Translations under genes and position numbers: made by a program | In this document: positions 8,388 to 60,004 of the stretch, piece after piece | Position numbering within the stretch: position 1 is the first letter of the stretch | Layout of the letters: each line of letters begins with the position of its first letter | The notes under the pieces: generated by a model | Databases searched by the model: none | What the model was told of the DNA's origin: nothing | What the model saw: only the letters and a program-made list of their open reading frames with translations | NCBI GenBank assembly: GCA_000092065.1 | Contig: CP000581.1 | Length of the DNA stretch: 64,000 nt | Strand: one strand, 5' to 3' | Origin: Ostreococcus lucimarinus | Taxonomy: Eukaryota

Positions 8388-8433
8388 GTCGAGACCCTTC
8401 TAATAACAAATCGCTACGACGTATTAGGCTTAT

Positions 8434-11400
8434 TTACAGCTCATCTTTCACGTCTTCTGTTTTATCGCCGACGCGCATGCGTTCTTCGACTCGTTCGGTG
8501 AACGCGCGAACCTCCGCGTCCAAACCTGGCCACTCTTGAACGATGCGTCGCGCGCCTTCAAGTTTTGGCTCCTTCGTGAGCGGGTTGTTACACAAATCGA
8601 TCGTCTTCGCCGCAGATTTGGTCTCATTCCCACACCACGATTCGCACCACAGCCAGGGCTGCGGTAACGAAAAGATTGGCACGTCGTGCTGCGCGTAGTT
8701 TGGCAAGTCTTGATCGAGGTTCGCCAACGAACCCGGATCTCGCGAAAGTTGGTCGTACATAACTCTCAATCTATCGCCAGCCGCCATAGCGCGAAAACGA
8801 TCGAGATCCACGACGTACAGCGCACTAATATGGTACGGCCTACCTCGTAAGTGATCTCGCCAGAAGCCCTGTTTCCAAAATCTAAAGCCTTCCATTTCTT
8901 TGTTGTTGTCGCACATCGGCGTGTACCCGTACGGCGCACCGTGAAGATCCATGGTCCAAAGTTCGCTCATATCCGCTCGAACAATTTGATCGGCATCGAC
9001 AAAAATAACTTTGTTGAGCTCGAGTGGGAACAGTACGTCGAGGAACAGAATCTTATACGCCCAGATGATTCTTTGCTTCTCCGTTTGCTTGTTCAGCCAC
9101 GTCGGCCACTTGTAGCTCACGAGCTCATACTCAAAGTCGTACTCCTTTGCCATGTACGGTAAGAAATCTTTAAAGGACGGCGAAAGCCAGTTTTTGATGA
9201 ACCAGAATTTCACCGGATTCTTCGTCGAGCGCTTGACGGATGCCATCATAATTTTCAAGAATCGCTCGTACAGATGACCGGAGGCAACGCTAAAGATGTG
9301 AATACGGTCTGCCTCCTTCGTCCTCTTGAATACACTCGACAACCATCCACTATTGTCTGAGGTTGAAACTTCGTCGAGTACGTCAAGATCTTCCTTACCT
9401 TTCCGTCTCGCAAGAGATACGTCAAGTTGCCGCCCTCTGAAAGAGTCCACTAATACGTCGACGGTGGATTCGTCGTGCGAAAGCGTCAAGTCTCGCGCCT
9501 CCGAGTCGAGAAGATCTTTCACCTGAAGAAATGCGAATATGTCCGACGATCTACCAGCTCGAAGTGACAACTTGTGCATTCCAGGTGAGGCTGGAAGCTG
9601 AAAATAACCCAAGTTCGACATCACGATTGTGCCTGGATTCACGGCCACGCTCTTATCCTCGAGCACGAACTGTGTCCCTCTCGCCGGTTGACCCGTGTTG
9701 TGATCACTTGCGTGGCCAGTGACTAGCAGAGACTCGAGCAAGTACTCTGCGTGCACAGTCTTCTCCTTGATGTCTTTGAGAATCAGGTTATCCAAATCAT
9801 ATGCCGCCCTGTGAGTCGTCACCATCCACGCTTCTGGGAAATCTACGTGCATCGTGAGCGTCTTGTGGGTCGGAACATTGGTGATGAATGCACGAGGTGA
9901 TTCCGTCATCGACGACGGTGGCGCAACATAGCGGTAGTACGACTTCAACGGTAAATCCTGCAAATTCGTCATGGGATTAAGGACGACTCGAATGGTCACC
10001 GCTTCTGGCAATCGGTCTCGAAGTAGCGCGAGCACCGGCGCGACGCGTTGCGCCTCCTTACTCAAAGGATCGAGAATGGCCTCAATCTGAACGATAGTTC
10101 CGGAGCCAGTGACAAAACTTGTTGCTTTCGCGTCGTTAATGATTTCCTCCAAACTTTCCACCGTTCGCTTCGTGGATGCGCCGGCTTGTTTCATCGCAAC
10201 AATTGCTGCGGCGTCTGAGATGATGGTCGACAACAAAGCCGGTTCCATCTCCTCGGCGTCTGAGAGGATTTCTTCTTTCACCACGTCGAATACCATTTTA
10301 GATGTTTTTGTCATCTCGATGGCGGCGAGAACGTCCAGGTCTTCGGCATCCATTTGACATTGTCTGGCCATCAGATCCAGGACCCTTCCATTCGCAATAA
10401 CGGCGCACTTCGATGTCAAGTCGTAATGAGCCAGTAGTCGAAGACTTTGCGTCGCGACGTCGGCAAAAATCGTCTCGTCGCTATACAGTCGCTTAAAATC
10501 GACCAAATTCAGCCCCATTCGCTCCGCCGCATCCTCGGGCTTCACATCTTCTGCCAAGAGTTGCTCAACGAAATTGGCAATCTTAGCCCGTCGCGTAGGC
10601 AGATGCAACGCGGCTTGAATCGCGCGCGAGCGCGCTCCCATCGTCGCAGCTGCCGATGGATGAACTACTGTAAATCGCGAAAGCGAACCAGATTCGGACA
10701 ACACGTGCTTTGCAGCCGCCAGGATCAAAAGTGCGCCCCTATCACTGTCAGCGTTGGCTACGACGACGATGGACATACCTTTCACTTCGTCTGCATCGCC
10801 GCCTTGAGCGTACTTGAGCGAAGCGATTGACGAACGGTCGATGGGTAATCGATACACCGGTGCGACATCATCCTCATCCAATATCCAAGGAACATACTTA
10901 GAAACCGCTCCTTCTTGCATGAACTTCGCCACATTTTCGAGCAGGGCGCCGGCAAGTTTTCCCGCAACAACGAGTCTTCGAACTTTCTCCATCTCCTGGC
11001 GCAAGTGGTGCGATACCATTTGCTCCAACGATGCGCGATACGCCATACCTTGCGATTCATCGACGTACACACCGTTCAATACGAACGACTGTGTCATCAA
11101 GCCTTTCGCCTTCACGGCGGCGCGGACTTCGTCGATGTACTTGTCGATGCTCGTTGACGAACGAGATGCGAACTCTTCGAGCAACGTCACCGCATCAAAT
11201 TCGAGATCATCGGCAAATTCTGACAGTGTTTTCTCGAACGCATCCATCGCACCTTCCCAAGACGGCGGAGAATATACCGCGGGCGCGAAGTACGACGGTG
11301 GTCTTTCTTCCGTACGACTTTGCGCTACGTAAGACATGAAATTGTGCTGTGCGACAGGCCCATATTCGCGCAATAAGTAATTTGCGGCACGTGCAACGCG

Positions 11401-45947: not shown

Positions 45948-47090
45948 ATGGCGGCCTCGAGTCCGAGCTATCACGGCTCGCGCGCGCTCGACGCCGACGC
46001 GTACGAGCGCCAGCTCGAGGAGAAGGTTGCCGAAATCGCGCGCGCGTTCGCGCCGTTCGTCGACGCGTCGCGCGCGCGCGTCGCGCGCTCGGAAATCGTC
46101 GAGTTCCGCTCGAGGGTACGGTTTCAAGTCGTTCGCGACGTTGACGGCGCGTCGCGCTACGCGATGTGGGACAGAGGCGCGCCGACGGTGATGGTGGATG
46201 ATTTTCCCATGGCGCGACGGGCGATCCGAGACGTGATGGGGCGATTGCTGCGCGAGGCGAGCGCGGTGGCGGCGCTGCGGGACGGGCTCGAGGCGACGCA
46301 CTTTTTGTGCGGCGTCGCCGAAGGCAAGGTGTTGGCGACGCTCGTGTACTCGACACCGATCAACGTCGACGCGTGGACGCTCGCGGCGCGTCGTTTACTC
46401 GCGACGAAGTTCGACGACGTGTCGCTCGAACTCATGGGACGATGCAAGGGCGTCGTCGCGAAGACGGGGGATGATTTCGTGTGGGAAGAGTACGAGCTCG
46501 GCGACGGTTCGGTGTTGACTTACAAACACACCGAGGGCGCTTTTTCGAATCCTAATCGAACGATCACGATCGCCACGATGGAGTTCTTGCGCGATGCGGC
46601 GAAGAAGAAGTTCTCGAGGCGAAAGATGCTACTAGAGCTGTATTGCGGCAACGCGAATCATACGTGCGCGCTCGCGAATTTGTACGAGCGCGTTGTCGCG
46701 GTTGAAGTAAACCCCGTTTTAGTCGATGCCGCGCGAGAGAGTCTGGACATGAACTCGGTGTCGAACGTCGATATAATTTTGAGTCCGAGCGAGAGCGTCG
46801 CCAAAAGTTTGCTGCGCGGAAAGTTCAAAGACGCAGCCGGCGCTACGATTCGCGTCGAAGACTTTGACGCCGTCCTCGTCGATCCACCTCGAGCGGGTCT
46901 CGACGCCGACACGTTGGCGCTCGTGTCCCAGATCGATCACGTGCTGTACGTGTCGTGTGGACCTGAAAACTTGCTCGCCAACATCAGGGATGGACTGGAC
47001 GCAACACACGCGGTCGACGATTTCATAGTATTGGATCATTTCCCGTGGACGCGACACATCGAAGTCGCCGTATCCATGCGCAAGCGTTAG
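45948..47090 (+). CDS. tRNA (uracil-5-)-methyltransferase, TrmA-type (tRNA m5U54)
   Basis: From real ATG 45948: MAASSPSYHGSRALDADAYERQLEEKVAEIARAFAPF.. parallels E. coli TrmA (..[21 protein letters not shown]..). C-terminal SAM-MTase fold: ..LELYCGNANHTCALA..FDAVLVDPPRAGLD..VLYVSCGPENL... The track ORF extends 189 R/P-rich codons upstream from a GTG. Confidence 0.8.
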   Translation: MAASSPSYHGSRALDADAYERQLEEKVAEIARAFAPFVDASRARVARSEIVEFRSRVRFQVVRDVDGASRYAMWDRGAPTVMVDDFPMARRAIRDVMGRLLREASAVAALRDGLEATHFLCGVAEGKVLATLVYSTPINVDAWTLAARRLLATKFDDVSLELMGRCKGVVAKTGDDFVWEEYELGDGSVLTYKHTEGAFSNPNRTITIATMEFLRDAAKKKFSRRKMLLELYCGNANHTCALANLYERVVAVEVNPVLVDAARESLDMNSVSNVDIILSPSESVAKSLLRGKFKDAAGATIRVEDFDAVLVDPPRAGLDADTLALVSQIDHVLYVSCGPENLLANIRDGLDATHAVDDFIVLDHFPWTRHIEVAVSMRKR

Positions 47091-47253
47091 GTAGTTTAGA
47101 GAAATCCAATGTAGGTAGAACGGTAGTACAACATAAGCAATTCTTTTAGTAGTCACATCGAAGTCGCCGTATCCATGCGCAAGCGTTAGGTAGTTTAGAG
47201 AAATCCAATGTAGGTAGAACGGTAGTACAACATAAGCAATTCTTTTAGTAGTC
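47056..47253. repeat. Perfect 99-bp direct tandem duplication (x2) spanning the stop codon of the tRNA methyltransferase gene
   Basis: acatcgaagtcgccgtatccatgcgcaagcgttaggtagtttagagaaatccaatgtaggtagaacggtagtacaacataagcaattcttttagtagtc occurs at 47056-47154 and again at 47155-47253. It lies in the convergent 3' region just before the DUS3 stop (47263). Confidence 0.85.
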
Positions 47254-47262
47254 TAGTTAGGG

Positions 47263-49089
47263 TCATCCCTGGTCCATATCGCCGAGCGCGGCGCCAGACT
47301 CGCTCGCGTAAGCGTTCGATTTGTGCTTTGGCTGAAATGCGAATCCTTCAGGCGGCGGGCCGAGGAGCATTGTGGAGATCTTCACCCAATCGCTACTCGC
47401 CTCGCTCGCCATGAGTGTCTCCAAATCGTCCCGTCCAACAAACGCCGGTGGGCGCTGTGTCATCGCGGCAGCGCCGTAACTGTGATCCAACAACCCGATG
47501 GGGGTGTAGCGATACGTAAACGACATCCACTCGAGCAAATATTTGCGCGTCGACTCCACGCCTCGCGTGTCGCTTCCCCAGTGTTCGAGCCCGAAAGAGG
47601 CGAATGATTTCAAAATATCGAATCGCTCACGCGACGAAATGTCCCAGTCGCGACGCTCTTTGATTTCGGTGAACAGCCACGGCTTGATGAGCGCGCCGCG
47701 AGCGAGCATGCACGTGTCCACGGAGTGTTCCTCCAGATGGGTGTAGTAATCCTTTTGCATGTATACATCGCCGTTACCTATCAAAGGTACCGAGCTCGAC
47801 TCTTTTGTTAATTTGGTGTACTCCCAATCCGCCACGCTCCGGTATCGCTGCGCGCGCGTGCGTCCGTGAAGCGTCATCGCCGCCGCGCCCCATTCGGCGA
47901 CTTTCGGCGCAAACGTGTGCGCGACTCGACTTTTATCGGTGTACGCCATGCGCGTTTTGAACGTTAGCGAACACTTGCCAAGCGCCGCGCTGGCAGCACG
48001 AATGACTGTTTCCATCTTCTTGGGTTTCTCGAGCATCATCGACCCGTATCCTTTCTGGCACACGGAGTCGATCGGGCACCCCATGTTGATGTCTATAAAG
48101 TCGACGTCTATCGTGTCTTCGAGTAATTGGCAGCACCTGGTGACTGAGTCTGGGTAACCACCACATATCTGCACCCCAAAAATGTCTTCGCTCTTATGAC
48201 GACGAAGAAGCGCCCACTCACTCGGGAGTCCTTGCAGTAAACTCGTACACAACGCCATCTCACCGCACGTGATGTCGGCGCCAAGCGTCTTGCAAACGCG
48301 ACGAAACGGTAAATTTCCGACCGTCGTCAAAGGAGCTAGGTACAGCTTGTCTTTGAAGTCGATTGTTCTCTTCTCTTCGACGCGCGCTTTCGTAAACGCA
48401 CCCGTATCCGTACGGTTTTCTTCGTCGACTTTTGCGCGTTTCGCCGCGCTCTCCTCGCCCGCTTTCGTCTGCTCATCCTTTTTCGTCTCCATCGCCCTCA
48501 ACACTTCCTTCACGATCGTATCCGCCCTAGAAAAATCATACTTCTTCTTGCGTAACCGCACCATCACGTCCTTGTCCACGAAATTCATCTCCTTCTCCAC
48601 CGTCTTCGGCGGCTCGAGCGTCGTCGTCGACTCGGCAACCGTCGCGCCGTCCCGACCCTCCCCCGTCGCGTGCGTTCCGTAATATCGACAACGCACCCCG
48701 TACGGGCACCCGCCCTCTTTATTCACGAACGTGCACGTCCCCGGCAAATCGGGAGGTTTCGTCTTCAAAAACGCGTCGACGTCGTGCGAATATTTACACG
48801 CGTCGCCAAAGGCGCACTTTCCCTCGCGCGTCAACTGATTGCACAGCCCGCGCTCGCGCGGCTTATCCGCGCGCGACTTTTCGGCGAACTTGGCGCGTTT
48901 GTTGAACGCGCCGAACGTGCCGCCGCCCGAGATCGGCGCGGCGTCGCCGGCGTCGGCGTGGGTCGCCGCATCGAGCGGCGGCGGTGGTCTGGGCTCGACG
49001 AGAAACTCGCGCTTGACGACGACGGTACCGCTCGCGAAGAGCTCCGCGGACGTGGGCGGAGTCCACGGCGCGCCGACGTCGCTCGACAT
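47263..49089 (-). CDS. DUS3: tRNA-dihydrouridine synthase 3-like (two CCCH zinc fingers + DUS TIM-barrel)
   Basis: Real ATG at 49089. ..LCNQLTREGKCAFGDACKYSHD.. and ..GTCTFVNKEGGCPYGVRCRYYGTH.. (CCCH x2). DUS domain ..LAPLTTVGNLPFRRVCKTLGADITCGEMA..IDINMGCP... Confidence 0.85.
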   Translation of the reverse strand: MSSDVGAPWTPPTSAELFASGTVVVKREFLVEPRPPPPLDAATHADAGDAAPISGGGTFGAFNKRAKFAEKSRADKPRERGLCNQLTREGKCAFGDACKYSHDVDAFLKTKPPDLPGTCTFVNKEGGCPYGVRCRYYGTHATGEGRDGATVAESTTTLEPPKTVEKEMNFVDKDVMVRLRKKKYDFSRADTIVKEVLRAMETKKDEQTKAGEESAAKRAKVDEENRTDTGAFTKARVEEKRTIDFKDKLYLAPLTTVGNLPFRRVCKTLGADITCGEMALCTSLLQGLPSEWALLRRHKSEDIFGVQICGGYPDSVTRCCQLLEDTIDVDFIDINMGCPIDSVCQKGYGSMMLEKPKKMETVIRAASAALGKCSLTFKTRMAYTDKSRVAHTFAPKVAEWGAAAMTLHGRTRAQRYRSVADWEYTKLTKESSSVPLIGNGDVYMQKDYYTHLEEHSVDTCMLARGALIKPWLFTEIKERRDWDISSRERFDILKSFASFGLEHWGSDTRGVESTRKYLLEWMSFTYRYTPIGLLDHSYGAAAMTQRPPAFVGRDDLETLMASEASSDWVKISTMLLGPPPEGFAFQPKHKSNAYASESGAALGDMDQG

Positions 49090-49188
49090 GCGCGCGGAGA
49101 AGCGCCGCGGCGGCGCGCGCGGCGCTGTGTGTCGTAACCGACTCTCTACACCTAATCGCTACAAAGACGCCGCGCTAACCGCGCCAAT

Positions 49189-50067
49189 TTAATTTTTCCT
49201 ACGGCGTAATTTTCGCGCGCGCGCGCCGCTCGCGGCGCACCGATCGTCGTCGTTTTCTTCGTCTCGTCCATCGACGACGTCGTCGTCGTCGTCGAGATGG
49301 ACGCGAACGTCGGCGCGCGTCGCGACGCTCGATTCCGGCGCCGCGCGCTTTTTCGTCTTCGACTTGGCGTTCGCCGCCGCCGCGCGAGAGAATCGCGGTT
49401 TCGGCAACGCTTCGACGGACTCGCGTTCGACGTGTATCGTCGGTGTGTTCGGGTGCTCGTCGCCCGTCGCCGACGACGGACCGCGCGCGTTCGACACTCG
49501 CCCGCTACCGACGGTGAGCTCTTCGTCGAGCGCGTATCGCGTGTACTTGGCGGGATTCGCCACGTGATCCGGCACGCGGTCCACCGCGCTCGGCGCGCCC
49601 ACCGCGCGCGCGCGCTCGACCATCGACGTCACCCCGTTCATCGATCGACGCTCGCGCGCGTCGACGCCGAGCGCCAGGGCGTCGTCCTCGTCGAAATCCG
49701 CCTCGCCGTCCAGCGCGCGACACCGCCCGACGCTCGCCGCCAACCGCGTCATCTTCCGCGCGTCGTCGTCCCCCTCCTCGTCCGATTCCAGGCAATCCAA
49801 ATCGTCCCCGCATCTCTCGCTCGCGCTCTCGCTCGCGCTCTCGCCGTCGCCGCCGTCGCCGTCGCCGCCCCGTCGCGTCACCGCGTTCGATCGCGGTCGC
49901 CACCCGCCGCCGTCGCCGTCCCCGAACACCGCGCCGACGCGCGCGTGAAACGTCCCGTACTCGATCGTCTCCGTCGCGCCGCGCGACGTCGACGCGCGCG
50001 CCGATTCGCGATTCAAGCGATCCTTCGCGTCGCCCGCGTCGTCGTCCGCGCGCGCGCGCGTCGCCAT
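49189..50067 (-). CDS. Hypothetical acidic protein
   Basis: 292 aa from real ATG 50067. D/E/G-rich, contains ..PDHVANPAKYTRYALDEELTV... Basic C-terminal tail (KSKTKKRAAPE..KLRRRKN, NLS-like). No family assigned. Confidence 0.4.
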   Translation of the reverse strand: MATRARADDDAGDAKDRLNRESARASTSRGATETIEYGTFHARVGAVFGDGDGGGWRPRSNAVTRRGGDGDGGDGESASESASERCGDDLDCLESDEEGDDDARKMTRLAASVGRCRALDGEADFDEDDALALGVDARERRSMNGVTSMVERARAVGAPSAVDRVPDHVANPAKYTRYALDEELTVGSGRVSNARGPSSATGDEHPNTPTIHVERESVEALPKPRFSRAAAANAKSKTKKRAAPESSVATRADVRVHLDDDDDVVDGRDEENDDDRCAASGARARKLRRRKN

Positions 50068-50269
50068 CGCGTCGTCGTCGTCGTCCCGTTGTGTCCGCGC
50101 GACGCGTCGTCGTCGTCGTCGCGCGCGTCGACCGCGCCGCGCGTCGTCACCGCGCGTCGCGCGAACGCGCGCGCCGACGCGCGTGCGATTCGCCGGAAAC
50201 GTTCGCGCCCGTCACGCGCGCGCGCGTCCGCCGTCGCGCGTCGCCGCGATCGCGCGCGCGCGCGTCGAT

Positions 50270-50520
50270 CGATCGATCGAACCCGATCGACGCGATCCGA
50301 ATCGATCGAATCGATCGAATCGATCGATTCGAGCATCGAATCGAATCGACCTCGAGGTCGACCTCGCCCGCTCGACTCGGGGTGCTTGAATCCGGTATTG
50401 GGAATTTCCCGATGCGTATTGAAATCGGCGATTTTACACTGTTTGCCCATACGAAAAGCCTAATACGTCGATACGCCAATACGGTATCAGCTCGTATCGA
50501 TACGAGCTGATACCGTCGCG
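50270..50520. promoter_or_regulatory. Bidirectional promoter region with palindromic microsatellite and a perfect 34-bp palindrome
   Basis: (gaatcgatc)n-type repeats and gacctcgaggtc at 50270-50360. A locally AT-richer tract. cggtatcagctcgtatcgatacgagctgataccg (50482-50515) is identical to its own reverse complement. Confidence 0.5.
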
Positions 50521-50582
50521 CGATCGCGAATCGCGATCGAACCGCGCGACGCACGACGACGCGCGCGATCCGACGCGCCGCG

Positions 50583-51161
50583 ATGACGCTCGCGACGACG
50601 ACGACGACGATGCCCCGCGCGCGCGCGATCGCGCCCCGACGCGCTCCGAAGACGACGCGCAAAATCGCGACGACGACGACGCGATCGACGGCGATCGACG
50701 CCGGCGATCGATTCGCGACGGCGACGCGGACGCTCGCGGCGGTGACGCTCGCGGCGACGCTCGCGATGCAACAACCGACGGACATCGCGCACGCGAAATC
50801 CGGCGCGGACGCGAACGTCGTCGAGAGATCGAGCGGGCTGTCGCCGATCAGCGATAAGGCGAAGTCGTACGGCGAAGAGATCGACGCGCGCGAGGCGGGC
50901 GATTACGAGAGCTCGAAGCGCGGGTCGTACAACGTGCGAGAAAAGTACGCGAAGAAGGCGCCGAAGGCGACGAAGAAGTTTGAACGACCGGTTCGGGAGG
51001 AAGCGGCGCCGAGGGCGAAGAAGGAATCCTCGGGCGGGGGGTTCGCGTTGCCGAGCTTTTCGTTGCCGAGCGTGTCGCTGCCGAGCCTGCCGAGCCTGCC
51101 GAGCTTCGGCGGCGACGCGGCGACGGAGGACGCGGCGCCGGCGGAGGCGGAGGCGTCGTGA
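50583..51161 (+). CDS. Hypothetical small protein with presequence-like N-terminus (possible plastid/thylakoid targeting) and SLPS repeats
   Basis: Real ATG at 50583. T/A/R-rich N-terminus followed by a hydrophobic stretch ..TRTLAAVTLAATLAMQQPTDIAHA (AxA-like site). Mature part is K/E-rich with ..GGGFALPSFSLPSVSLPSLPSLPSFGG... Confidence 0.45.
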   Translation: MTLATTTTTMPRARAIAPRRAPKTTRKIATTTTRSTAIDAGDRFATATRTLAAVTLAATLAMQQPTDIAHAKSGADANVVERSSGLSPISDKAKSYGEEIDAREAGDYESSKRGSYNVREKYAKKAPKATKKFERPVREEAAPRAKKESSGGGFALPSFSLPSVSLPSLPSLPSFGGDAATEDAAPAEAEAS

Positions 51162-51360
51162 GCGCGCGCGCGGCGAACGCGATGAAACGTCGCGAACGCG
51201 AACGCGATCGGCGCTCGACGCGACCGAACGCGTTTAATAATAAAGAAGCGCACACTTCGTCGACGCGTCGACGCTCGCCCCGCGCCGCGCGCTCGACGAA
51301 TGAGTGAAGACGACCGCGCGCGAGATTCCGCGACGCGCCGTCCGCGCGCGACGACGCGCG

Positions 51361-52146
51361 ATGGGCGGTCGCGGGCGCGGTGGACGCTCGAACGCGTGGA
51401 CGCGCGACGGCGGTCAGGGACGCGGCGGTCGCGGACACGCCGCCGTCGGCGTCCGAAGACGAGACCTGCTCCAGGAAGATTTGCTCGACGAGAAACCGAA
51501 CTGGGCGCTGTCGTGCTACGGCCCGAAGGGCGAGCAGCCGAACCTGCTCGGCGGTGACACGTCGTTCGAGGAGCTGCGGTGCGCGGCGTACGCGACGGTG
51601 CGCGCGGGAGGGGACGCGGGAGGCGCGCACGCGCGAGCGCGCGAGTACGCCGACGCCAAGGCGGGCGACGTCAAGGGAATACTGGCGTTCCCGGAACATC
51701 AGCTAAAGTTAGTTTTGGACCGCGTGGAGCGAGGGGAGATGGCGCCCGCGGGCGCGGATCGCGTGATGGACGGAACGGCGATCGTGGGGGGTGGGGGAGG
51801 GTTCTCGAGGACGCACGCGCCGGCGCTCGACGCGAGGGCGACGCCGTTCGCGCCGGCGGGTGGGATGGCGAGCGGGTTCACGGGGAATCAGCCTTCGTTG
51901 ACGCCGGTTGCGACGGGGTTCGTGGCGAGCGCGCAACCGACGAGTCCGTTCGGCGGCGGTCCCGGAGGCGGCGCGAGTCCGTTCGGCGGCGGTCCCGGAG
52001 GCGCGAGTCCGTTCGGCGGCGGTAACGCGCCGCGCGCGCCGTCGCTCACGCCGGATCCGAACGTCCCGAACTCAGAGGCGTGGTGCGCGCCTTCGTTCGA
52101 CATCGGAGGCGTGCCCGACGACCCGCCGCCCGCCGCGTACGTTTGA
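51361..52146 (+). CDS. NUP42/NUPL2-like FG-repeat nucleoporin
   Basis: First real ATG at 51361; the track's 51304 is GTG. ..EKPNWALSCYGPKGEQPNLLGGDTSFEELRCAAY.. parallels human NUPL2 ..[31 protein letters not shown]... C-terminal FG-type repeats SPFGGGPGGGASPFGGGPGGASPFGGG. Confidence 0.55.
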   Translation: MGGRGRGGRSNAWTRDGGQGRGGRGHAAVGVRRRDLLQEDLLDEKPNWALSCYGPKGEQPNLLGGDTSFEELRCAAYATVRAGGDAGGAHARAREYADAKAGDVKGILAFPEHQLKLVLDRVERGEMAPAGADRVMDGTAIVGGGGGFSRTHAPALDARATPFAPAGGMASGFTGNQPSLTPVATGFVASAQPTSPFGGGPGGGASPFGGGPGGASPFGGGNAPRAPSLTPDPNVPNSEAWCAPSFDIGGVPDDPPPAAYV

Positions 52147-52193
52147 TTGGGCGCGCGCTTTCGTGTTGTTACATAGTCGATGTAGTTGTAGAA

Positions 52194-55061
52194 TCACTCG
52201 CGAATCGCGAATTCACTCACCGATCTCGTCATCGGTGTCTCATTTTCTGCCTCTGCGGCCTCGAGCGCTTTTTTGTCATGCGCTTCGCGCTTGCGTTGCC
52301 CGCGCGCCTCTCGAGCGATGACTTTTCGTTGCGAACGAATCATATTGTCAAACTCCGACGTCAGGCGATAATCAAACTGGTACGCCCACTGTACCTCGGT
52401 GTCTTGAAACACGAGCGCGCGAACGTCGCCTACGGCGCGAGCTGACGTCCACGCCGTGAGAGTTTCTTCTTCGCCGCTCGCTTCCAAGTTTTTCAATTCA
52501 CCGACGAAATTGCCCACTCGACGAACGCCGACGACGACGCCGTCGCGAGTCAGCGTGCACTCGCCTGCAGTTATTATGAAGAACTCCGTCGCCGGGTCAC
52601 CCTGCCGCGTGATGAGCTCGCCGCTTTTGAATCGACGTTCAGGTGGTTGATGAGAGATGGAAATCAACCCGTCGAGTCGGGTGTGCAGGTTATGCAGCGT
52701 GTCCGAAGTGTGCGAAGCCTGGCCAGTGAACCAGGCGTGTTCTAGTGCCTGAGTCGCGGTGAGCCTGCGCTTGGGATTGGGATCGAGTAAACCTTCTATC
52801 AAATCCTTCGCGACATCACTCACAGATTCCCACTCCTCCGTTTCGAAATCGAGATCACATTCAATGATTTGCTCGTAAAGTTCATCCTCATCGTCGTCAT
52901 CAAACGGCCACGTATTCGTGAGCAGGACGTGCATGGCGATTCCGAGCGCCCAAACATCCACGCCTTGACCGTACACGCCAGCAAGTAACGCCTCTGGGGC
53001 GATGTACGATAGTGTACCACACACGTGCTGCGCTTTTTGACGAGCGTTCAACGCCTTCGCCAAACCAAAATCGACAATGTTCAACGACTTCAAATCGCCC
53101 TTTTCAGCCAGAACAAAGTTCTCGAGCTTCAAATCTCTATGAATGACACCCTTGCCGTGCATGAACGCCACTGCATCGAGCATGGCAGACATTATTATCT
53201 TGACCTCTTCTTCGCTAAATGCCCCGCGCGCGTTCACCAAATCGTCGAGCTCCTCGCCTTGCAAGCAATCCATGACGACGTGCACGACTTCATCGTTTTG
53301 TTCAGTGAAAAACTCTCGTATGGTGACGATATGCGGGTGCGCTGAGAGCTGCTGCATCATGACGAGTTCGCGCTTGACTTCATGAAGCGTCATGGATTGA
53401 AGCTCATCCTCATCGTCGCTGTCTTCATCGCTCGATGACTCACTTCCACCTTCGTCGTCGCTGTCGCCGCCTAAACCTTCGACGCGAAGCGTCTTCACGG
53501 CGACGATTTCACCCGTGTTACGATGCTTCGCCTTGCGCACAACGGCAAAACCACCGGCACCAAGAGTTTCTAAAACGTCGTACTTGTCTAGGAAAGGCAT
53601 ATAATCGTGCACTAACCCGACTGGGCGAACAAAACGCGATGTGTCAAGATCGTCCAAACCGCCCGGCGCAGAATTCGTTCGTTTCAGCCCGAGCTTGTTT
53701 CGCGTTCGACCTTCGGGCTTATGTTCGATGCGTTTGGCGAACAAGTGCGCTAAACGATAGCTAGGCATGGCTTTAACCAGTAATCCTTTGGTGTCGAATC
53801 CCTGCGGTCGTTGCGAATTCTTCAAATTGTTTGGCATCGCTTGAGCGCGCAAGCCACTCCAACCAGTGTTGATTTGCCTCTTCGTCGCGCTCCCCATTCG
53901 AGTCAAACCGGCAGAGTTCTTGCGCTCCAAAGTCATGGCGTGCATACGGTCACTTATGAACGGTGCCGGAGACGCGCTTCGCGAGCCTCCTGGAGATTCA
54001 CCTGGAGACTTCGTCGCCTTCGCGAGCGCGGCGAGATCCGGCGCGCTGTCCAACCGAAGCAACTGCGCGTGACCACGCGCAGCTTTCCCTCCGTAAGATG
54101 CAGGTTTCACCGATGCCCAAGCACTCAGACCAACAGGTAGTAAACCTGCGCGTTTCGCTCGTTCAATAAGCTCGCCAAAGATTTCGGGTGCCTTGGGAAC
54201 GTCTATGGACACGTCCTTGAGCGCCGTGGCGGTGCGCGCGAAACCTTTCGCCATTTGACTTCCGTTCACCACAGAGCTCCGCCCGATGTATTTCAATAAA
54301 TCCACCACCTTTTCGATGACGTTAGGGGTCAAGATCGACTGCTCGATCGCCAGCGTCAGCGCTTTCTTGACGAGCTCGTGATGGTAAAAAGGCATGTTCA
54401 ACCGACGTAATCGCCGCTCCGCCTCGGCGCCGTCTCTCGACATCAAATACTCATCGATGATATCCCGCATCTCTATCTTGGCGTTATCCGCGCTGTATCC
54501 CTCGGGTCCGCCCCACGCCTTACGCACGCGCGACTCCCCACTCGCATCGGCCAGCGTCATTTTCGCCGACTTGGCCACGTCTCTTCCTTCGCCGTAACCG
54601 TCCCTCGAGCACGCCGTCTCCAGGTACGTCACCGACACCACATCATCCGCCACCGCGCGCGCCAAAAACGTCACGCACTCAGCCACGGCATCTGGGAAAT
54701 CGATTTTCAAATCCGCAACCTCCGCGAGCACGCGATCGAACCCACGTTCGAAATCCTCCGCGTCCAGCGTCCCGCTCGCCCTCGTCGCCGCGAGCGCCTG
54801 CGCGCACATCTCCCGCTCTCTCGCCCCTCTATCCAGCGCGCACGCGATCATGCGCTTCACGCAGTGCGCCTCCAGCCCACACTTCGCATCGCTCGCCCCC
54901 GCGCCCCCGCCCTGCGCCGCGATCGTCTCCGCGAGCGCGCGGTCGAACTCCTCCACGCTGCAGTGCGAAAAGAACTCTCGACAGCGCTTCTCCACGTCGC
55001 GCTTGAACGCCACCTCCTGTCCGACGTAATACTTGGACCGCGACGACCACGGCGCGGACAT
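52194..55061 (-). CDS. Multidomain signalling protein: two PDCD4-like MA3 domains + CaMK-like Ser/Thr kinase + C-terminal cyclic-nucleotide-binding-like domain
   Basis: Real ATG at 55061 (MSAPWSSRSKYYVGQ..). MA3 #1 ..CREFFSHCSVEEFDRALAE..REMCAQALAA; MA3 #2 ..IDEYLMSRDGAEAERRLRRLNMPFYHHELVKKALTLAIEQS (compare PDCD4 ..LKELEVPHFHHELVYEAI..). Kinase motifs LGAGGFAVV, VAVK, HRDLKLEN, DFGLA, APE. C-terminal ..FKSGELITRQGDPATEFFIITAGECTLT..NFVGELKNL.. looks cNMP-binding-like. One uninterrupted frame. Confidence 0.75.
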   Translation of the reverse strand: MSAPWSSRSKYYVGQEVAFKRDVEKRCREFFSHCSVEEFDRALAETIAAQGGGAGASDAKCGLEAHCVKRMIACALDRGAREREMCAQALAATRASGTLDAEDFERGFDRVLAEVADLKIDFPDAVAECVTFLARAVADDVVSVTYLETACSRDGYGEGRDVAKSAKMTLADASGESRVRKAWGGPEGYSADNAKIEMRDIIDEYLMSRDGAEAERRLRRLNMPFYHHELVKKALTLAIEQSILTPNVIEKVVDLLKYIGRSSVVNGSQMAKGFARTATALKDVSIDVPKAPEIFGELIERAKRAGLLPVGLSAWASVKPASYGGKAARGHAQLLRLDSAPDLAALAKATKSPGESPGGSRSASPAPFISDRMHAMTLERKNSAGLTRMGSATKRQINTGWSGLRAQAMPNNLKNSQRPQGFDTKGLLVKAMPSYRLAHLFAKRIEHKPEGRTRNKLGLKRTNSAPGGLDDLDTSRFVRPVGLVHDYMPFLDKYDVLETLGAGGFAVVRKAKHRNTGEIVAVKTLRVEGLGGDSDDEGGSESSSDEDSDDEDELQSMTLHEVKRELVMMQQLSAHPHIVTIREFFTEQNDEVVHVVMDCLQGEELDDLVNARGAFSEEEVKIIMSAMLDAVAFMHGKGVIHRDLKLENFVLAEKGDLKSLNIVDFGLAKALNARQKAQHVCGTLSYIAPEALLAGVYGQGVDVWALGIAMHVLLTNTWPFDDDDEDELYEQIIECDLDFETEEWESVSDVAKDLIEGLLDPNPKRRLTATQALEHAWFTGQASHTSDTLHNLHTRLDGLISISHQPPERRFKSGELITRQGDPATEFFIITAGECTLTRDGVVVGVRRVGNFVGELKNLEASGEEETLTAWTSARAVGDVRALVFQDTEVQWAYQFDYRLTSEFDNMIRSQRKVIAREARGQRKREAHDKKALEAAEAENETPMTRSVSEFAIRE

Positions 55062-55178
55062 CTCCGCGACGCGCTCGCCGCGACGCGACGCGCGCGCGCG
55101 ACGCCAGCGCGTCGAACGGCGCGATGTGATGCGCACCGAACGCGTCGCGCGCGACTTCGCGACGCGTCGCGCGTCGCC

Positions 55179-56525
55179 ATGGGCATCTTCGACGGCATCT
55201 TCGGCGGCGAGCCGCGCGCGTCGAGCGGCGCGTCCGCGCTGTTCGACGCGCGGTCGGCGTTTCACGCCGCGAGCGCGGCGGACGCGCCGGTGGTGCGCGC
55301 GCCGTTGTCGGCGTCGGCGAAGAAACGGGCGCGACGCGACGCGAGCGCGGACGCGACGGACGCGCGCGCGAAACGCGCGCGAGAAAAACCGAACGCGCGC
55401 GCGGCGAGCGCGGCGTCGTCGTCGTCGGACGCGGCGTCGAGCGAGGATGAGGGCGAAAGCGAGGACGATGCGCCGGCGGCGGCGGCGGTTTCGGACGAGA
55501 AACCGAACGGCGACAGCGACAGCGATGAGGGAGCGACGAAAGCGAAACCGTCGGGGTCGGGGTATCGCGATCGATCGGCGGAGGCGACGGCGGAGGAGCT
55601 GGCGCGGACGGTGTTCGTCGGGAACGTCCCGGCGAAGACGAAGCTGAAAAAGTTGAAGGCGAAATTCGGCGAACACGGCAAGGTGGTGAGCGTACGGTTG
55701 AGAAACGTGCCCGTGGAAGCGGATGGAAACGAACCTAGGAAAATTAAAGTGCTGAAGGGAAAATTAAACGCGGAGCGGGCGAACGCGACGGCGTTCGTGG
55801 TGTACGACGACGCGGCGTCGGCGCGCGCGGCGACGGCGGCGTTGAATATGAAGGAGTTCGAGGGACGGCACATTCGCGTTGATTTAGCGAGTAAACCATC
55901 GATCATACGAAGTGAGGTGGTGTATGATCACACGCGAAGTGTCTTCTTGGGCCATTTACCGTTTAATGTCGACGATGAGGACGTGATTCGGTTGTTCAAC
56001 AAGAATAAAGAGTATCCCGATTTGCGCAAGAGCGTCGAGGCCGTGCGCGTGGTGCGAGACAGAAAGACGACCATGGGTAAGGGCATCGGGTTCGTGTTGT
56101 TCAAAACGCCAGCGCAAGCGCGTACGGCGCTTTTGCTTGACGGGAGTAAGCTCGGCGATAGAGAGATTCGCGTGAGCAAAGCCGCTCGATCCAAGGCGCC
56201 GAAACCCGGCACGCCGAGCAAGGCGCGCGCCGAGCCGAAGGTCGCCACCGGTGCCGAACGACGGAATCCGAAGCTTCGTGACGAAGGTGGCGATGCGTCG
56301 ACGTCGCGTGGCACAAACGCGTGGGAAGGGTCGAGATCTCGTCCCGGTGGAAAATCGTCCAAGAGCGCGCACCGCGGCGGCGAGGCGCAGCGCGGCGCCC
56401 CAGGCGCGAGGCAAACTTCGAGTAAAGCCGGCATCGCGAAGGCGGCCAAACGATCGGGAAAGCGCCCCGCCGTGGCGGCGCGCAAGGCCAAAGCCAAGGC
56501 GTCCGCGGCGGCGGGACGTAACTAA
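55179..56525 (+). CDS. Nucleolar two-RRM RNA-binding protein (RBM34/Nop12-like)
   Basis: Real ATG at 55179 (MGIFDGIFGG..). RRM1 ..TVFVGNVPAKTKLKKLKAKFGEHGKVVSVRL..AFVVYDD... RRM2 ..SVFLGHLPFNVDDEDVIRLF..GKGIGFVLFKT... Acidic Ser-rich N-terminus and K/R-rich C-terminus. Confidence 0.7.
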   Translation: MGIFDGIFGGEPRASSGASALFDARSAFHAASAADAPVVRAPLSASAKKRARRDASADATDARAKRAREKPNARAASAASSSSDAASSEDEGESEDDAPAAAAVSDEKPNGDSDSDEGATKAKPSGSGYRDRSAEATAEELARTVFVGNVPAKTKLKKLKAKFGEHGKVVSVRLRNVPVEADGNEPRKIKVLKGKLNAERANATAFVVYDDAASARAATAALNMKEFEGRHIRVDLASKPSIIRSEVVYDHTRSVFLGHLPFNVDDEDVIRLFNKNKEYPDLRKSVEAVRVVRDRKTTMGKGIGFVLFKTPAQARTALLLDGSKLGDREIRVSKAARSKAPKPGTPSKARAEPKVATGAERRNPKLRDEGGDASTSRGTNAWEGSRSRPGGKSSKSAHRGGEAQRGAPGARQTSSKAGIAKAAKRSGKRPAVAARKAKAKASAAAGRN

Positions 56526-56585
56526 CGTAGATTTTGTGGTCTTGATGCTGCGCAATACAACGTCTCAGCGATTCCTCGCGCCGTC

Positions 56586-57072
56586 TACTCCTCCTTCTTA
56601 TCGCCCTCGATCGCCTTCGTCTCGCCTTCTTCGGTCATTTCCTCTGTAAGTTCATCCTTAAACTCCTATTCGCGTCGCAAACCAACCGTCACGATTCGTC
56701 AGTCGTCGCGTTCGCTCGCCCTCGTCCCGCGTCGCCTTCGTTTGAGATACTCTTTGCCCTCGCGCGTCCGTCTCGCGCGCTCGCTCGATCAACGCCTTCG
56801 CCGCGCACCTTGGCCGCCTCTTGAAAACTCTTCACCGTCTTCCCGAGCGACTTTCCGAGCTCGGGAAGCTTGCTCGGGCCGAACAGCACCGCGGCGACGC
56901 CACCGATGACGACGATTTCAGGAAGCCCGAGCCCGAACAATCCGTTGGAAATCACGCGCGCGCGTCGTCGTTCGAGCGCCGCGCGACGCGGCGCCAGCGC
57001 GGACGATCGCTGTGCGTACGTTTGACGCGCCGCGACGCGCGTCGCGCGCGCCGGGGCGTGCACGGTAAACAT
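56586..57072 (-). CDS. THA4: Plastid twin-arginine translocase subunit Tha4 (TatA), 2 exons
   Basis: Exon 1 ..GLFGLGLPEIVVIGGVAAVLFGPSKLPELGKSLGKTVKSFQEAAK ends at AAG|gtgcgc (intron 56667-56808, actgac 27 nt before acceptor aatag). Exon 2 (56586-56666) encodes EFKDELTEEMTEEGETKAIEGDKKEE*, giving the canonical ..FQEAAKEF.. and acidic tail. Start set at ATG 57072 (MFTVHAPARATRVAARQ.. transit peptide). An upstream in-frame ATG at 57195 is an alternative. Confidence 0.8.
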
Positions 57073-57257
57073 CACGACGGATTCTGCGGTCGATCGCTCG
57101 CGCGCGGTCGCCGGCGTCGCCGCATTCGCGCGCGCGCGCGACGTCACGCGCGACCGTCGACGCTCGTGACGCGCTGAGATGACGTAACGCTGCATCGCGC
57201 GCGCACACGCACGAGATAGACGCGCGAGACGCGCGCGCGGCGACGCTGTTCGTCGTC

Positions 57258-59922
57258 ATGTCGACGCGATGCGCCGACGCGCAGTCGCTCAACCGCGCCG
57301 TCGTCGCCGCTCGCGCGCCGCGCGAGCTCGTCGCGCTCATCGACGGCAACGACGCGCTGCTGAACGCGATCAACTGCGCCGCGATCGCGGGCAAGGCGGC
57401 GAAGATGCACGCGCTGGCGGAGAAACGCGACGATGGCGCCGCCGCCGGGGAGGCGCGCGCGGTGGTGAAAACCATCGCGAACGTCGCGCGCGCGTCGCTG
57501 GAACGCGCGCCGCGCGAGTGGTGGCCGCGGCAGTGCGCGGCGATGCTTTGGGCGTGTGGACGCGCGAACGCGCGGGATGAGGCGATGGAACGCGCGATCG
57601 AGGCGATGGTGGAGGCGCGCGCGCGAATGTTCAAGCCGCAGGAACTGTCGAACGCGTTTTGGGGATTGGCCAAGGCGAAGAGCGATACCGTGGGATTGTG
57701 GTTGATATTGGGAGACTTGATACGAGCGTCGTTGATGGTGGATAAAGGGACGGATCATCAGAACGGATGGACGCCGCAAGGGGTGTCGAACGCGGCGTGG
57801 AGCTTGGGGGCGATGACGGAGACGACGCGACGAGGCGTGTTCGAGGAGAGCGCGCTGGGACGCGAGCTCGCACGTGGGATCGCGGTGGCGGTGGAAGAAC
57901 GAGTTGAGATGTTCAATCCGCAAGAATGTGCGAATACGATGTCTGGGTTCGCGAAGTGTGGGTCGAGCGTGCGAGAAGACGCCGAAGTAGGTGTCAAGGC
58001 GTTGTGCTCGCGATTGAAGCGAGAACGCGCGTGGTTCTCCGGCGGCGAGTTTCAGTGCCAGCACGTCTCCAACGTTATTTGGGCGTGCGCGAAGTTGAAC
58101 ATGAGCGATGATGCGGAATTGATCGCTATATTCGTCGACGCGGCAAACGAGTACGCGAACAAGTTCAACGCGCACGAACTCTCGATGGTTCTGTGGGCGC
58201 TCGCGAATCTCGCCGTCGACGATCACAAAGTCATGCACGCGCTCGCAAAGTCGATGGCGAGGAAAGCGGACGAATCATCGGCGCAGCAAATCGCGACGTC
58301 AGCGCACGCGATGGCAAAGCTCGGGATTTATAACTCACAGATAATGAAGGCTTACAAGGATCACGCCGCGGCGCGCAGAGATGAATTTCAGCCGCGCGAC
58401 ATCGCGTTCTTGGCGTGGTCGTTCGCAAAACTCGACATCAAGGCACCAGAACTGTTTGAAATGTTTAGCGCTGTGGTGTGTGAGATGTTGTTCGACGTCG
58501 AGTTTCAAACCTTTTCGCCACACCACTTGACGATGGTGTTGTGGTCGTTCGCCATGCTCAACGAAAATACGCAAGAGGTTTTACCATACATCGTGCGGGC
58601 GATGAAGTCCATGATCGACGAGTTCAATCCGCGAGATTTGACGAACACGGCGTGGGCGCTCGCCGCGCTCGGATGCGACGACAATGAATTAATCAAAGCA
58701 CTGGGCGCGTGCGCACAAATGAAGCTCAACGACTTTAATTCGCAGGAGCTTTTAAAGTTCCTCGGTTCGTACGAGCGACTCGGCGTTGAAGACGCTTCAC
58801 TCGCCAAAGCCGTGTCGGCGCGGCGTACGTTGTCGTACGAGTTTCCCTCAATGAACGCTACCATCGAGCTCACCGCGGCGACACCGCAGAGTTACAAAGG
58901 TACCGATCGTGTCCGCGTCGACGATAGCTGTGGGGGATGGGGAAGAGGAAACACGGGTGTGGCACTGTGGGAAGGAAGTTTTGTTTTAGCGGAGTGGTTA
59001 TCTCGACAGAAATCGCCGCTCGCGACGGAGGGCGTCGCTAAGGCGCTCGGTGGAGCTTGGGACGACGATTGGAAGGGTAAAGTATGCGTTGAACTCGGTG
59101 CTGGTTTAGGTTTACCGTCCGTAGTCGCTTCCAAACTTGGCGCGCACGTTGTCGCTACCGACGGTACGTTTCGCGCGTCTTCTTTCGACTTGTTCGTCCT
59201 TCGCCACTGTTAATCCCTTCATTGGACTTTCTGTGTCCTTGGAGTTTCAAATGTGGCACACATCAACTCGGGAGTTTCGCTGACAGCACTCGCACGTTTC
59301 GGCGGGCCATGAGTGTCATCTGATAGTAGCTCTCGCACATTCATCGCGCGTATCGCACATCGAACTGACGAGTTCCTTTTCATTCCACGCAGGCGACGAC
59401 GACGTCTTGACGCTACTGCGAGAGAACGTCGAAGCAAACGCGGCGAAGGACGCACGCGTAGAGAAACTTGTTTGGGGCAACGAAAAGCCGCTAAAAACTC
59501 TCGGGTTAAAAACGCAGCCGGATCTTGTCTTGGCGAGCGACGTCGTGTACGGTAACGACCCGGCCAAGTGGACGAATCTCGTGCGCACGATGCGCGACTT
59601 GGCTGGGCCGAACACGCTCATTTTGATCGCAAACGTCCAGCGGTACCCTGTACACCATCCGCTCGCGGAAACTAAGTTTTACACCGAGTCAACGGTAAAA
59701 GATTTTGAGCGAACGGAGCTACCAGTGACGGCATTACACTCCGATTTCCAACGCACTGGCGCCGGTAATTGCGTCATTCACGTGTTTCGTCCGCGCGGCG
59801 ACAAAAAGAGAAAGTCGGCGAGTAAAGATGCAAAAAAGGAGAAGAAGGCAAAAAAGGAGAAGAAGGAGAAGAAGGAGAAGAAGGAGAAGAAGGAGAAGAA
59901 AGAGAAGAAAGAGAAGTCCTAG
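57258..59922 (+). CDS. OPR (octotricopeptide, about 38-aa) repeat protein fused to a Methyltransf_16 (METTL21/Nnt1-like) SAM-methyltransferase domain, with a Lys/Glu-rich tail (2 exons)
   Basis: Real ATG at 57258. At least 8 repeats of F.PQELSN..WALAKL-type (FKPQELSNAFWGLAKA, FNAHELSMVLWALANLA, FQPRDIAFLAWSFAKLD, FSPHHLTMVLWSFAMLN, FNPRDLTNTAWALAALG ...). Then ..GGWGRGNTGVALWEGSFVLAEWL..VCVELGAGLGLPSVVASKLGAHVVATDG|gtacgt, intron 59164-59392 (actgac 21 nt before cag), then DDDVLTLLRENVEAN..DLVLASDVVY... Tail is KKEKKAKKEKKEKKEKK... Confidence 0.7.
59836..59915 (+). repeat. Coding trinucleotide-type microsatellite (AAGGAGAAG)n
   Basis: About 9 units of aaggagaag / aaagagaag encoding the (KEK)n C-terminal tail of the OPR-methyltransferase protein. 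Confidence 0.8.
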
Positions 59923-60004
59923 CTGAGTATTAGATAGAGTTAGAGCGTAGCGCGTCACGACGAGACGAGTGTTGTGAATAATATTGCAAAGTCATCGTTC
60001 GTCT

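Follow-up and report, generated by a model that had tools for sequence, protein, structure and literature searches.

A gene of Ostreococcus lucimarinus that joins PDCD4-type MA3 domains, a CaMK-like kinase and a cyclic nucleotide-binding fold in a single reading frame

Translation that depends on eIF4A is restrained by PDCD4, a central brake whose control in animals and plants lies with kinases acting in trans, S6K1 and Akt among them. Human PDCD4 binds eIF4A through acidic patches on its two MA3 domains, E249/D253 in MA3-M and D414/D418 in MA3-C (PMC3089569), and a 2013 study of PDCD4 evolution described ‘two-MA3 PDCD4 homologs’ in Ostreococcus tauri, Ostreococcus lucimarinus and Micromonas (PMC3850090). 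The subject of this report is a gene of O. lucimarinus that joins an MA3 pair to a protein kinase within one open reading frame (ORF). It lies at positions 52194-55061 of a 64,000-nucleotide stretch of contig CP000581.1 (assembly GCA_000092065.1), the whole of which is referred to here as the window. The orthologous gene of O. tauri was classed as an ‘Unusual CAMK’, CAMK-like, in a 2014 kinome paper (as Ot01g01760), the text and tables of which make no mention of MA3 (PMC4143559). The annotation string given for the same gene (ostta01g01780) in a 2023 phosphoproteome paper names a Ser/Thr kinase, MA3 and cyclic nucleotide monophosphate (cNMP) binding together (PMC10540734). The architecture is therefore already in public annotation, and it is uncharacterised. 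An initial annotation of the window, made from the letters alone, knew of no MA3 module covalently joined to a kinase; as a claim of novelty this does not hold, given the O. tauri annotation string, although we found no paper in the searchable literature that describes or analyses the fusion of MA3, kinase and cyclic nucleotide-binding (CNB) domains.

The encoded protein has the order MA3-MA3-linker-kinase-CNB-tail and is specified, as had been proposed, by one uninterrupted frame of 955 codons on the minus strand, running from an ATG at 55061 (MSAPWSS...) to a stop at 52194-52196. The domains that had been named from motifs were all recovered by hidden Markov model searches at the Pfam curated cut-offs (23.2 bits for MA3 and 27.5 bits for cNMP_binding). 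MA3 scored 116.4 bits over two stretches of the whole protein, and each half also exceeded the cut-off when scanned apart (Table 1). Pkinase scored 230.3 bits, and cNMP_binding scored 39.5 bits on the whole protein (residues 808-890) and 42.8 bits when the domain was scanned apart. A database search returned ∼20 protein clusters with the same MA3 plus Pkinase (plus cNMP) architecture, which are 42-76% identical to the window protein. We regard the single-gene status and the domain assignments as nearly certain; our certainty is much lower for the link to eIF4A and for the regulatory logic considered below.

The frame runs uninterrupted through the linker between the MA3 pair and the kinase in every one of these clusters, though the length of the linker is very variable. 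In the window gene the linker has no stops in the coding frame and three to nine stops in each of the other five frames, and at the composition of the linker a run of 180 codons without a stop has a probability of ∼7e-4. Compared with the O. tauri-type orthologue, the linker is 71% identical at the amino-acid level, with a ratio of non-synonymous to synonymous substitution rates (dN/dS) of ∼0.10; the corresponding ratios are ∼0.17 for the MA3 region, 0.07 for the kinase and 0.06 for the CNB domain, all of them rough since dS is saturated in this comparison. By this measure, the linker is under purifying selection. An MMETSP transcript ORF (P0094, 1153 residues, 99% identical to cluster P0009) carries both MA3 domains, Pkinase and the CNB domain, and a second transcript ORF (P0482, 1137 residues, ‘type:complete’) falls in another cluster of the family, the domain span being established for P0094 alone.

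PDB chains of PDCD4 match both MA3 domains (residues 60-309) with E=1e-31, compared with E=3e-4 for eIF4G2/DAP5, in agreement with the initial description of the tandem as PDCD4-type. Both domains are modelled confidently by AlphaFold2 (AF2), with predicted local distance difference test (pLDDT) values of 80-93. In the alignment with human PDCD4, D117/D121 of MA3-1 (ADLKID) correspond to E249/D253 and D283/D287 of MA3-2 (KDVSID) correspond to D414/D418. Across the 21 aligned sequences D121 and D287 never vary, position 283 is always Asp or Glu, and the Ostreococcus-type clade has Asp at position 117. Because the acidic patches of PDCD4 are conserved, a link to eIF4A and translation is plausible, and eIF4A, or the eIF4A/eIF4G complex, is the most likely partner of the MA3 module.

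The idea that the fused gene is the sole PDCD4 of the alga was rejected. The Mamiellales sequences aligned in the 2013 study (PMC3850090) belong to a different, stand-alone protein, which in O. tauri is ostta05g02330 and has been detected in the O. tauri proteome (PMC10540734). Since this separate, ordinary two-MA3 PDCD4 is kept in the same algae, the fused gene is a PDCD4 paralogue. The fused MA3 region and the stand-alone PDCD4 are 35% identical.

Between the MA3 pair and the kinase, the linker of ∼170-180 residues noted in the initial annotation is predicted to be disordered, with AF2 pLDDT values of <50 over residues 312-483 and one short helix at residues 340-349. A 164-residue segment of it has no Pfam match. 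It contains the conserved short motifs listed in Table 1, and a further conserved motif, V-G-x-V-H-x-x-x-P-F, stands directly before the kinase. The linker also holds four strict L-x-R-x-x-S sites (S339, S383, S391 and S464) where 0.16 would be expected, a number that was reached in 0 of 20000 shuffles of the linker. The S339 and S464 motifs are kept in 20 of 20 full-length members of the family, and both sites also fit R-x-x-S-x-P. The pattern L/phi-x-R-x-x-S is the classical substrate consensus of CaMK, calcium-dependent protein kinase (CDPK) and SnRK kinases, while R-x-x-S-x-P resembles the 14-3-3 mode-I motif. As they fit the consensus of the CaMK group, the linker sites are probably phosphorylated by the neighbouring kinase domain acting in cis, or else by kinases related to it, and they may recruit 14-3-3 proteins.

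Three of the four linker sites coincide with published phosphopeptides assigned to the O. tauri orthologue, XP_003074235.1. The peptide LDpSAPDLVALAR (equivalent to S339) is lowered by the CK1 inhibitor PF-670462 (PMC3723912), TNpSAPGGLDELDTTR (equivalent to S464) is raised in CK1- and CK2-overexpressing lines (PMC3723912, PMC4716292), and SNpSPGLTR (equivalent to S383) is phosphorylated in vivo (PMC3723912, PMC4716292). The first two of these peptides map to the linker and hence show that it is translated, and in the O. tauri orthologue the linker is a multi-site phosphorylation target.

The kinase had been described as motif-complete and CaMK-type, and GAGGFAVV (501-508), VAVK (520-523), HRDLKLEN (641-648), DFG (664-666) and APE (688-690) were all found. 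The catalytic residues are present and invariant across the family. CaMKII and CaMKI are the top PDB matches (∼160 bits), and CaMKIV, DAPK and CDPK are also matched, over a range of 135-164 bits. Because no Ser or Thr lies between DFG and the CGT of the P+1 loop, the activation loop is not expected to be phosphorylated, and the kinase should be active without such a modification. All family members have an acidic insert of variable sequence and length between β3 and helix αC. This insert resembles a cluster of CK2-type sites. The term CaMK-type denotes a kinase group only. No EF-hand families were found in Pfam scans at E values up to 1, in which calmodulin binding by the junction helix or by the basic C-terminal helix was not tested, and Ca2+ dependence is unsupported because neither EF-hands nor another Ca2+-sensing domain were detected. 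The CDPK identity implied by a GenBank name was rejected for lack of detectable EF-hands. Two phosphoproteomics papers treat the O. tauri orthologue as a CDPK; no EF-hand is detectable in it.

The kinase ends at HAWF (residues 775-778) and is followed by a conserved helix, in which H793, R795, L796 and L799 are at least 90% conserved, and then by the CNB barrel. This junction helix sits where the autoinhibitory helix of a CaMK or CDPK would be and, by analogy, might have an autoinhibitory role. The resemblance of the C-terminal domain to a CNB fold, first suggested from its sequence, is also evident in structure comparisons. An AF2 model of the CNB domain alone (pLDDT 72) matches PKG I CNB-B, PKA R, Vfr/CRP and CNG channels in a Foldseek search against the PDB, with E values of ∼1e-8 to 1e-7 and a probability of 1.0.

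The Gly-Glu pair of the phosphate-binding cassette (G854, E855) is present and is invariant in the family. The position of CRP R82 and PKA R209 is occupied by Leu in the window protein (ETLTAWTSARA versus EERSAWVRAKV in the HMMER alignment with Vfr), and the phosphate-binding Arg is absent from 19 of the 19 fused sequences that reach the cassette, where the column contains Leu, Val, Pro, Ala or Thr. Throughout the fused family, inserts of widely varying length stand in for the cassette helix. A family profile aligns with PDB CNB domains mainly over β2-β3 and ends before the cassette, and distant fused members score 25.1 and 20.9 bits against the Pfam CNB model, under the cut-off. Canonical cNMP sensing is doubtful, since the Arg is lost in all fused members and kept in stand-alone kinase-CNB relatives. 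A PKG-like identity was rejected because the kinase belongs to another group, the domain order is different and the cassette arginine is missing.

The cassette insert is itself phosphorylated in O. tauri. The peptide NLEApSEAEEALVAWTSAR (equivalent to S862, site probability 1.0) has an acidic S-x-x-E context and varies 3.8-fold over the day (analysis of variance, p=4e-4), with its peak at zeitgeber time (ZT) 0, just before lights-on, and its trough at ZT4 (PMC10540734). It belongs to an acid-directed ‘phospho-dawn’ class that the authors credit to CK1/CK2; acid-directed sites peak at dawn in O. tauri, and translation in this alga is strongly light-stimulated (PMC10540734). Further on, within a few residues of the C-terminus, most family members have an R-x-x-S-E motif (RSVSE here; RAMSE, RATSE and RHQSE in relatives), though the surrounding tail is poorly conserved. 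Its full phi-x-R-x-x-S form is present in just 4 of 20.

The family comprises a clade of 930-1014 residues (63-76% identity), a clade of 1150-1250 residues with Gly/Ala/Ser-rich inserts (42-48% identity) and an Asn/Ser/Lys-rich form. Composition, length and abundance suggest that these groups are of the Ostreococcus, Micromonas/Mantoniella and Bathycoccus types, and the assignment of O. tauri is shown directly. In the searches made, the fused form was found solely in Mamiellophyceae-type algae and unnamed marine relatives, consistent with the lineage-specific origin that had been suspected. The window protein is collinear with this family over its full length, including the LRLDSAPDL and R-x-x-S-A-P-G-G-L motifs. 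The O. tauri orthologue (XP_003074235.1 / CAL50087.1 / Q01GQ7; Ot01g01760, ostta01g01780; OUS42796.1; cluster P0005) has 933 residues and 75% identity, agrees in its MA3x2-kinase-CNB order and in its flanking genes, and contains published phosphopeptide sequence. It is named ‘RmlC-like jelly roll fold’ in the first three of these records, a description that covers just its CNB barrel, and ‘putative calcium-dependent protein kinase’ in the strain variant OUS42796.1.

A full-library HMMER search also recovered stand-alone proteins of 436-642 residues in which a CaMK-like kinase is followed by a C-terminal CNB domain without any MA3 domain, with 31-46% identity over kinase plus CNB (P0199, P0218, P0235, P0253/P0356, P0309, P0282, P0183/P0333 and P0382; loci L006 and L007). 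Their hosts include Pterosperma sp. CCMP1384 (P0218, P0309) and Cymbomonas tetramitiformis (KAK3250468.1), both Pyramimonadales-type prasinophytes, and there are members from marine metagenomes (P0199, P0253 and P0235), some on contigs of >1 Mb. The canonical cassette arginine is found in P0199, P0218, P0235, P0253 and P0309 (RTASV, RQASV, RGADV), and most stand-alone members have, in addition to this arginine, long inserts inside the cassette. To our knowledge, no family of CNB-regulated CaMK-type kinases has been described in green algae. These stand-alone proteins probably still bind cNMP, and the C-terminal half of the fusion is likely to derive from them. The simplest history would be one in which a cNMP-responsive kinase-CNB gene became fused to a PDCD4-type module, after which the CNB domain lost canonical nucleotide binding. 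What is new here, to judge from the searchable literature, is the paralogy to the stand-alone PDCD4, the invariant and phosphorylated LxRxxS sites, the loss of the arginine after fusion and the existence of the stand-alone kinase-CNB relatives.

On balance, we lean towards reading the window protein as a kinase-coupled, phospho-regulated eIF4A binder of the PDCD4 type. We propose that the tandem MA3 module, with its acidic patches kept, clamps eIF4A or eIF4A/eIF4G, that the kinase phosphorylates the LxRxxS sites of the linker in cis and/or the bound initiation factors, and that phosphorylation of the linker, possibly read by 14-3-3, alters how eIF4A is held. The CNB-like domain probably gates the kinase through the junction helix, because the layout of kinase, junction helix and C-terminal sensor is like that of a CDPK, and it would be more likely to serve as a phospho- or protein-regulated switch than as a cAMP/cGMP sensor. 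The net effect would be that of a self-contained switch, the grip of MA3 on eIF4A being set by the activity of the kinase and the phosphorylation of the linker. Alternatively, the MA3 module could deliver the kinase to the initiation machinery for phosphorylation. In both versions translation initiation would be coupled to signalling, with inputs that include the dark-to-light transition and the clock kinases CK1/CK2. The initial annotation had suggested a link between cNMP or Ca signalling and translational control; of this, the translational part is plausible given the conserved patches, the cNMP part is weak given the lost Arg, and Ca2+ sensing was not detected.

A more elaborate proposal can be made for a self-contained translational switch of prasinophyte picoalgae, in which an eIF4A clamp is set in cis by its own CaMK-like kinase via the invariant LxRxxS/RxxSxP sites (maybe read by 14-3-3), this kinase is gated by a CNB domain freed of cyclic nucleotides, and the phosphoserine of the cassette is a pseudo-ligand written by CK1/CK2 before dawn. 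We consider it a long shot in this complete form. If true, the pseudo-ligand switch would be the missing link from the circadian/light signal to light-gated translation in Ostreococcus.

A number of points weigh against the phospho-regulated eIF4A binder that we favour. The binding of eIF4A and of 14-3-3 proteins is predicted from sequence, as are the activity of the kinase and its autophosphorylation. The N-terminal region of PDCD4 that binds RNA and ribosomes and contains the phospho-degron is absent upstream of the MA3 pair; the helices of MA3-1 begin at about residues 5-17 and are preceded by just ∼16 poorly conserved residues, as judged from the alignment and the AF2 model. MA3-1 is divergent, with a lower Pfam score and with N-terminal helices that are broken by a variable loop at residues 50-62, and in the other, Micromonas-like clade the Glu equivalent to E249 stands one residue earlier. 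The presence of a stand-alone PDCD4 in the same algae means that the fused copy may have switched partner. The S464 peptide rises with CK2 overexpression and also with the CK2 inhibitor TBB (PMC3723912, PMC4716292). The full-length AF2 model has a predicted template modelling score (pTM) of 0.32 and no confident inter-domain packing, so the autoinhibitory geometry cannot be assessed from it. Finally, loss of the cassette arginine lowers the affinity of a CNB domain for cNMP and does not always abolish binding.

Several of these points would also suit an MA3 pair that has no role in translation initiation and acts instead as a general HEAT-repeat platform on which another DEAD-box helicase or a kinase substrate docks; the protein would then be an ‘unusual CAMK’ with a neofunctionalised scaffold. 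The canonical PDCD4 is retained separately and shares just 35% identity with the fused MA3 region, MA3-1 has diverged and the N-terminal region of PDCD4 is gone. We nevertheless find this scaffold role unlikely, because both eIF4A patches are kept, with D121 and D287 invariant across deep divergence, the MA3 region is under purifying selection (dN/dS ∼0.17), and PDCD4 is by far the best structural-sequence match. We are similarly disinclined to see the protein as a true cNMP-regulated kinase, in which the CNB domain would bind cAMP or cGMP in a non-canonical manner, switch the kinase on and so tie cNMP to translation. The CNB fold scores above the Pfam cut-off, the Gly-Glu pair of GNFVGE is invariant, the CNB domains of PKG and PKA are the nearest structural matches, and the cassette is canonical in the closest stand-alone relatives, so that the ancestor probably bound cNMP. 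However, the Arg column is not conserved within the fused family, variable-length inserts have taken the place of the cassette helix, the match of the family profile stops short of the cassette, and distant members drop below the Pfam cut-off, all of which speaks against retained nucleotide sensing.

The arrangement could also be illusory if an MA3 gene and a kinase-CNB gene that starts at an internal Met merely shared an open frame, or if an internal promoter gave mainly a kinase-only product. Stand-alone kinase-CNB proteins do exist in related algae, and the window frame has internal Met codons at residues 373, 376, 389, 409, 432 and 488. Yet the frame is open across a linker of variable length in ∼20 clusters, the linker has invariant motifs and a low dN/dS and is stop-free in this frame alone, a transcript ORF of a relative (P0094) covers all the domains, and linker phosphopeptides have been detected in O. 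tauri. The two-gene or chance-ORF model was rejected on the basis of this conservation, the dN/dS values, the transcript ORFs and the phosphopeptides, and we consider it extremely improbable. A shorter isoform may be made in addition to the full-length product.

The coordinates of the features are collected in Table 1. The window as a whole is gene-dense and has a GC content of 61%. A spacer of 117 bp separates the start of the fused gene from a divergently transcribed gene for an RRM protein, and the end of a convergent gene for an Amo1_N-domain protein lies 47 bp downstream. A mechanically called ORF that reaches 55676 was rejected as a gene, being a GTG-started, Arg-rich read-through of the upstream spacer. 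Long Arg/Ala-rich ORFs that overlap real genes in other frames or on the other strand occur at many places (for example 55062-55676, and 49297-50463 on the plus strand) and are typical artefacts of mechanical ORF calling in a GC-rich genome. The GC content of third codon positions (GC3) declines along the fused gene, from ∼0.90 in codons 1-100 to ∼0.55-0.65 from codon 300 on. At 52-54 kb the GC content dips to 0.55, against 0.64-0.69 on either side, and comparable troughs are found in the window at 8-12, 20-22, 26-28, 42-44, 58-60 and 62-64 kb.

A near-identical gene, called as one gene, is found on a second contig (L001; ENA ERZ27294993 k141_542319, 6001-8865). It differs from positions 52197-55061 of the window at 5 nucleotides, giving I445T, E553K, T770A, G921E and one synonymous change, a count too small for interpretation. 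Gene order at ∼47000-60000, which was compared with L001 and L002-L004, is kept in O. tauri-type contigs and reads acetyltransferase, RESC6/FAST-like, (TatA), RRM protein, MA3-kinase-CNB, Amo1_N, small ORF, Dus3-like and tRNA U5-methyltransferase. The orthologues in the syntenic O. tauri-type contigs are likewise called as one gene. In a distant relative with a GC content of 73% (L005) the neighbours differ.

Table 1. Features of the MA3-kinase-CNB gene, with positions in the window and the basis of each assignment.
Feature	Residues	Position	Strand	Basis
Complete single-exon coding sequence, MA3-MA3-linker-kinase-CNB-tail	955 + stop	52194..55061	-	ORF translation, Pfam, single-gene calls
MA3 domain 1	∼17-152	54606..55013	-	Pfam 47.2 bits, PDCD4 alignment, AF2 pLDDT 80-93
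MA3 domain 2	∼191-316	54114..54491	-	Pfam 77.0 bits, PDCD4 alignment
Disordered linker with conserved short motifs and four LxRxxS sites	317-483	53613..54113	-	AF2, dN/dS, motif statistics
Motif LRLDSAPDL, at onset of short predicted helix	335-343	54033..54059	-	R336, L337, D338, S339, A340, D342, L343 invariant
Motif WSGLRA	401-406	53844..53861	-	R405, A406 invariant; W401, G403, L404 at least 90% conserved
Motif L-K-R-T-N-S-A-P-G-G-L	459-469	53655..53687	-	R461, S464, P466, G468, L469 invariant
CaMK-like Ser/Thr kinase	494-778	52728..53582	-	Pfam, catalytic motifs, PDB matches
Acidic Ser/Asp/Glu-rich insert GLGGDSDDEGGSESSSDEDSDDEDELQ, between β3 (VAVK) and helix αC	529-555	53397..53477	-	AF2 pLDDT <50
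Junction helix SDTLHNLHTRLDGLISI, kinase-CNB connector	786-802	52656..52706	-	AF2; helix 4-23 in CNB-only model
CNB-fold domain	808-895	52377..52640	-	Pfam, Foldseek
Degenerate phosphate-binding cassette, GNFVGE...LTAWTSARA	850-876	52434..52514	-	Vfr and family alignments
Basic long C-terminal helix and tail	902-955	52197..52358	-	AF2 helix 902-940
RSVSE (R-x-x-S-E motif)	946-950	52212..52226	-	Family alignment

The fusion is deeply conserved and in that sense constitutes ‘Rosetta-stone’ evidence that places a CaMK-like kinase and an eIF4A-binding module in one pathway. The Mamiellophyceae are globally abundant marine primary producers, and in O. tauri, a minimal model organism, translation is light-gated, the kinome is small and several phosphoproteomes have been published, which makes the hypothesis directly testable. 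Those phosphoproteomes already show that the O. tauri protein is phosphorylated at multiple sites and is responsive both to clock kinases and to dawn. The database names can be corrected, as CDPK is a wrong label for the protein and ‘RmlC-like jelly roll’ too narrow a one. The family also illustrates cleanly how a CNB domain has lost its nucleotide-binding arginine after fusion while unfused paralogues retain it. No new principle emerges; what is offered is a concrete, testable link from signalling and clock kinases to eIF4A-dependent translation in a tractable and ecologically important alga.

The tandem MA3 domains and their acidic patches are common to the window protein and to PDCD4, whether of animals, of plants (MRF/ECIP1-type) or the two-MA3 homologues of algae (PMC3850090). 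Unlike PDCD4, the window protein is without the N-terminal RNA/ribosome-binding region and has gained a phospho-linker, a kinase and a CNB domain on its C-terminal side, so that a kinase is attached in cis where PDCD4 is controlled by kinases in trans. A functional analogy is provided by Mnk on HEAT-3 of eIF4G, where a kinase is brought to eIF4F by a HEAT module of the MIF4G/MA3/W2 type (PMC3850090), although Mnk and eIF4G are two proteins of animals that associate non-covalently, whereas here there is one polypeptide with a presumed partner. With the CDPK and CaMK families the window protein shares a CaMK-group catalytic domain, and the layout of kinase, helix and C-terminal regulatory domain, and its linker sites match the phi-x-R-x-x-S consensus of this group; it differs in that no EF-hands or calmodulin-like domain were detected and the C-terminal sensor is a CNB fold. 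The stand-alone kinase-CNB proteins have the same order of kinase and CNB, but are without MA3 and have the cassette arginine. PKG and PKA R likewise have a CNB fold coupled to a Ser/Thr kinase; however, PKG consists of an AGC kinase with an N-terminal tandem of CNB domains, while the window protein has a CaMK-like kinase and a single C-terminal CNB domain that lacks the cassette arginine. The window protein resembles a PDCD4 with a built-in kinase and, at the same time, a CDPK with a CNB domain in place of the EF-hand sensor. Strictly it is a member of neither family, and it is a clear member of an unnamed family of the Mamiellophyceae type.

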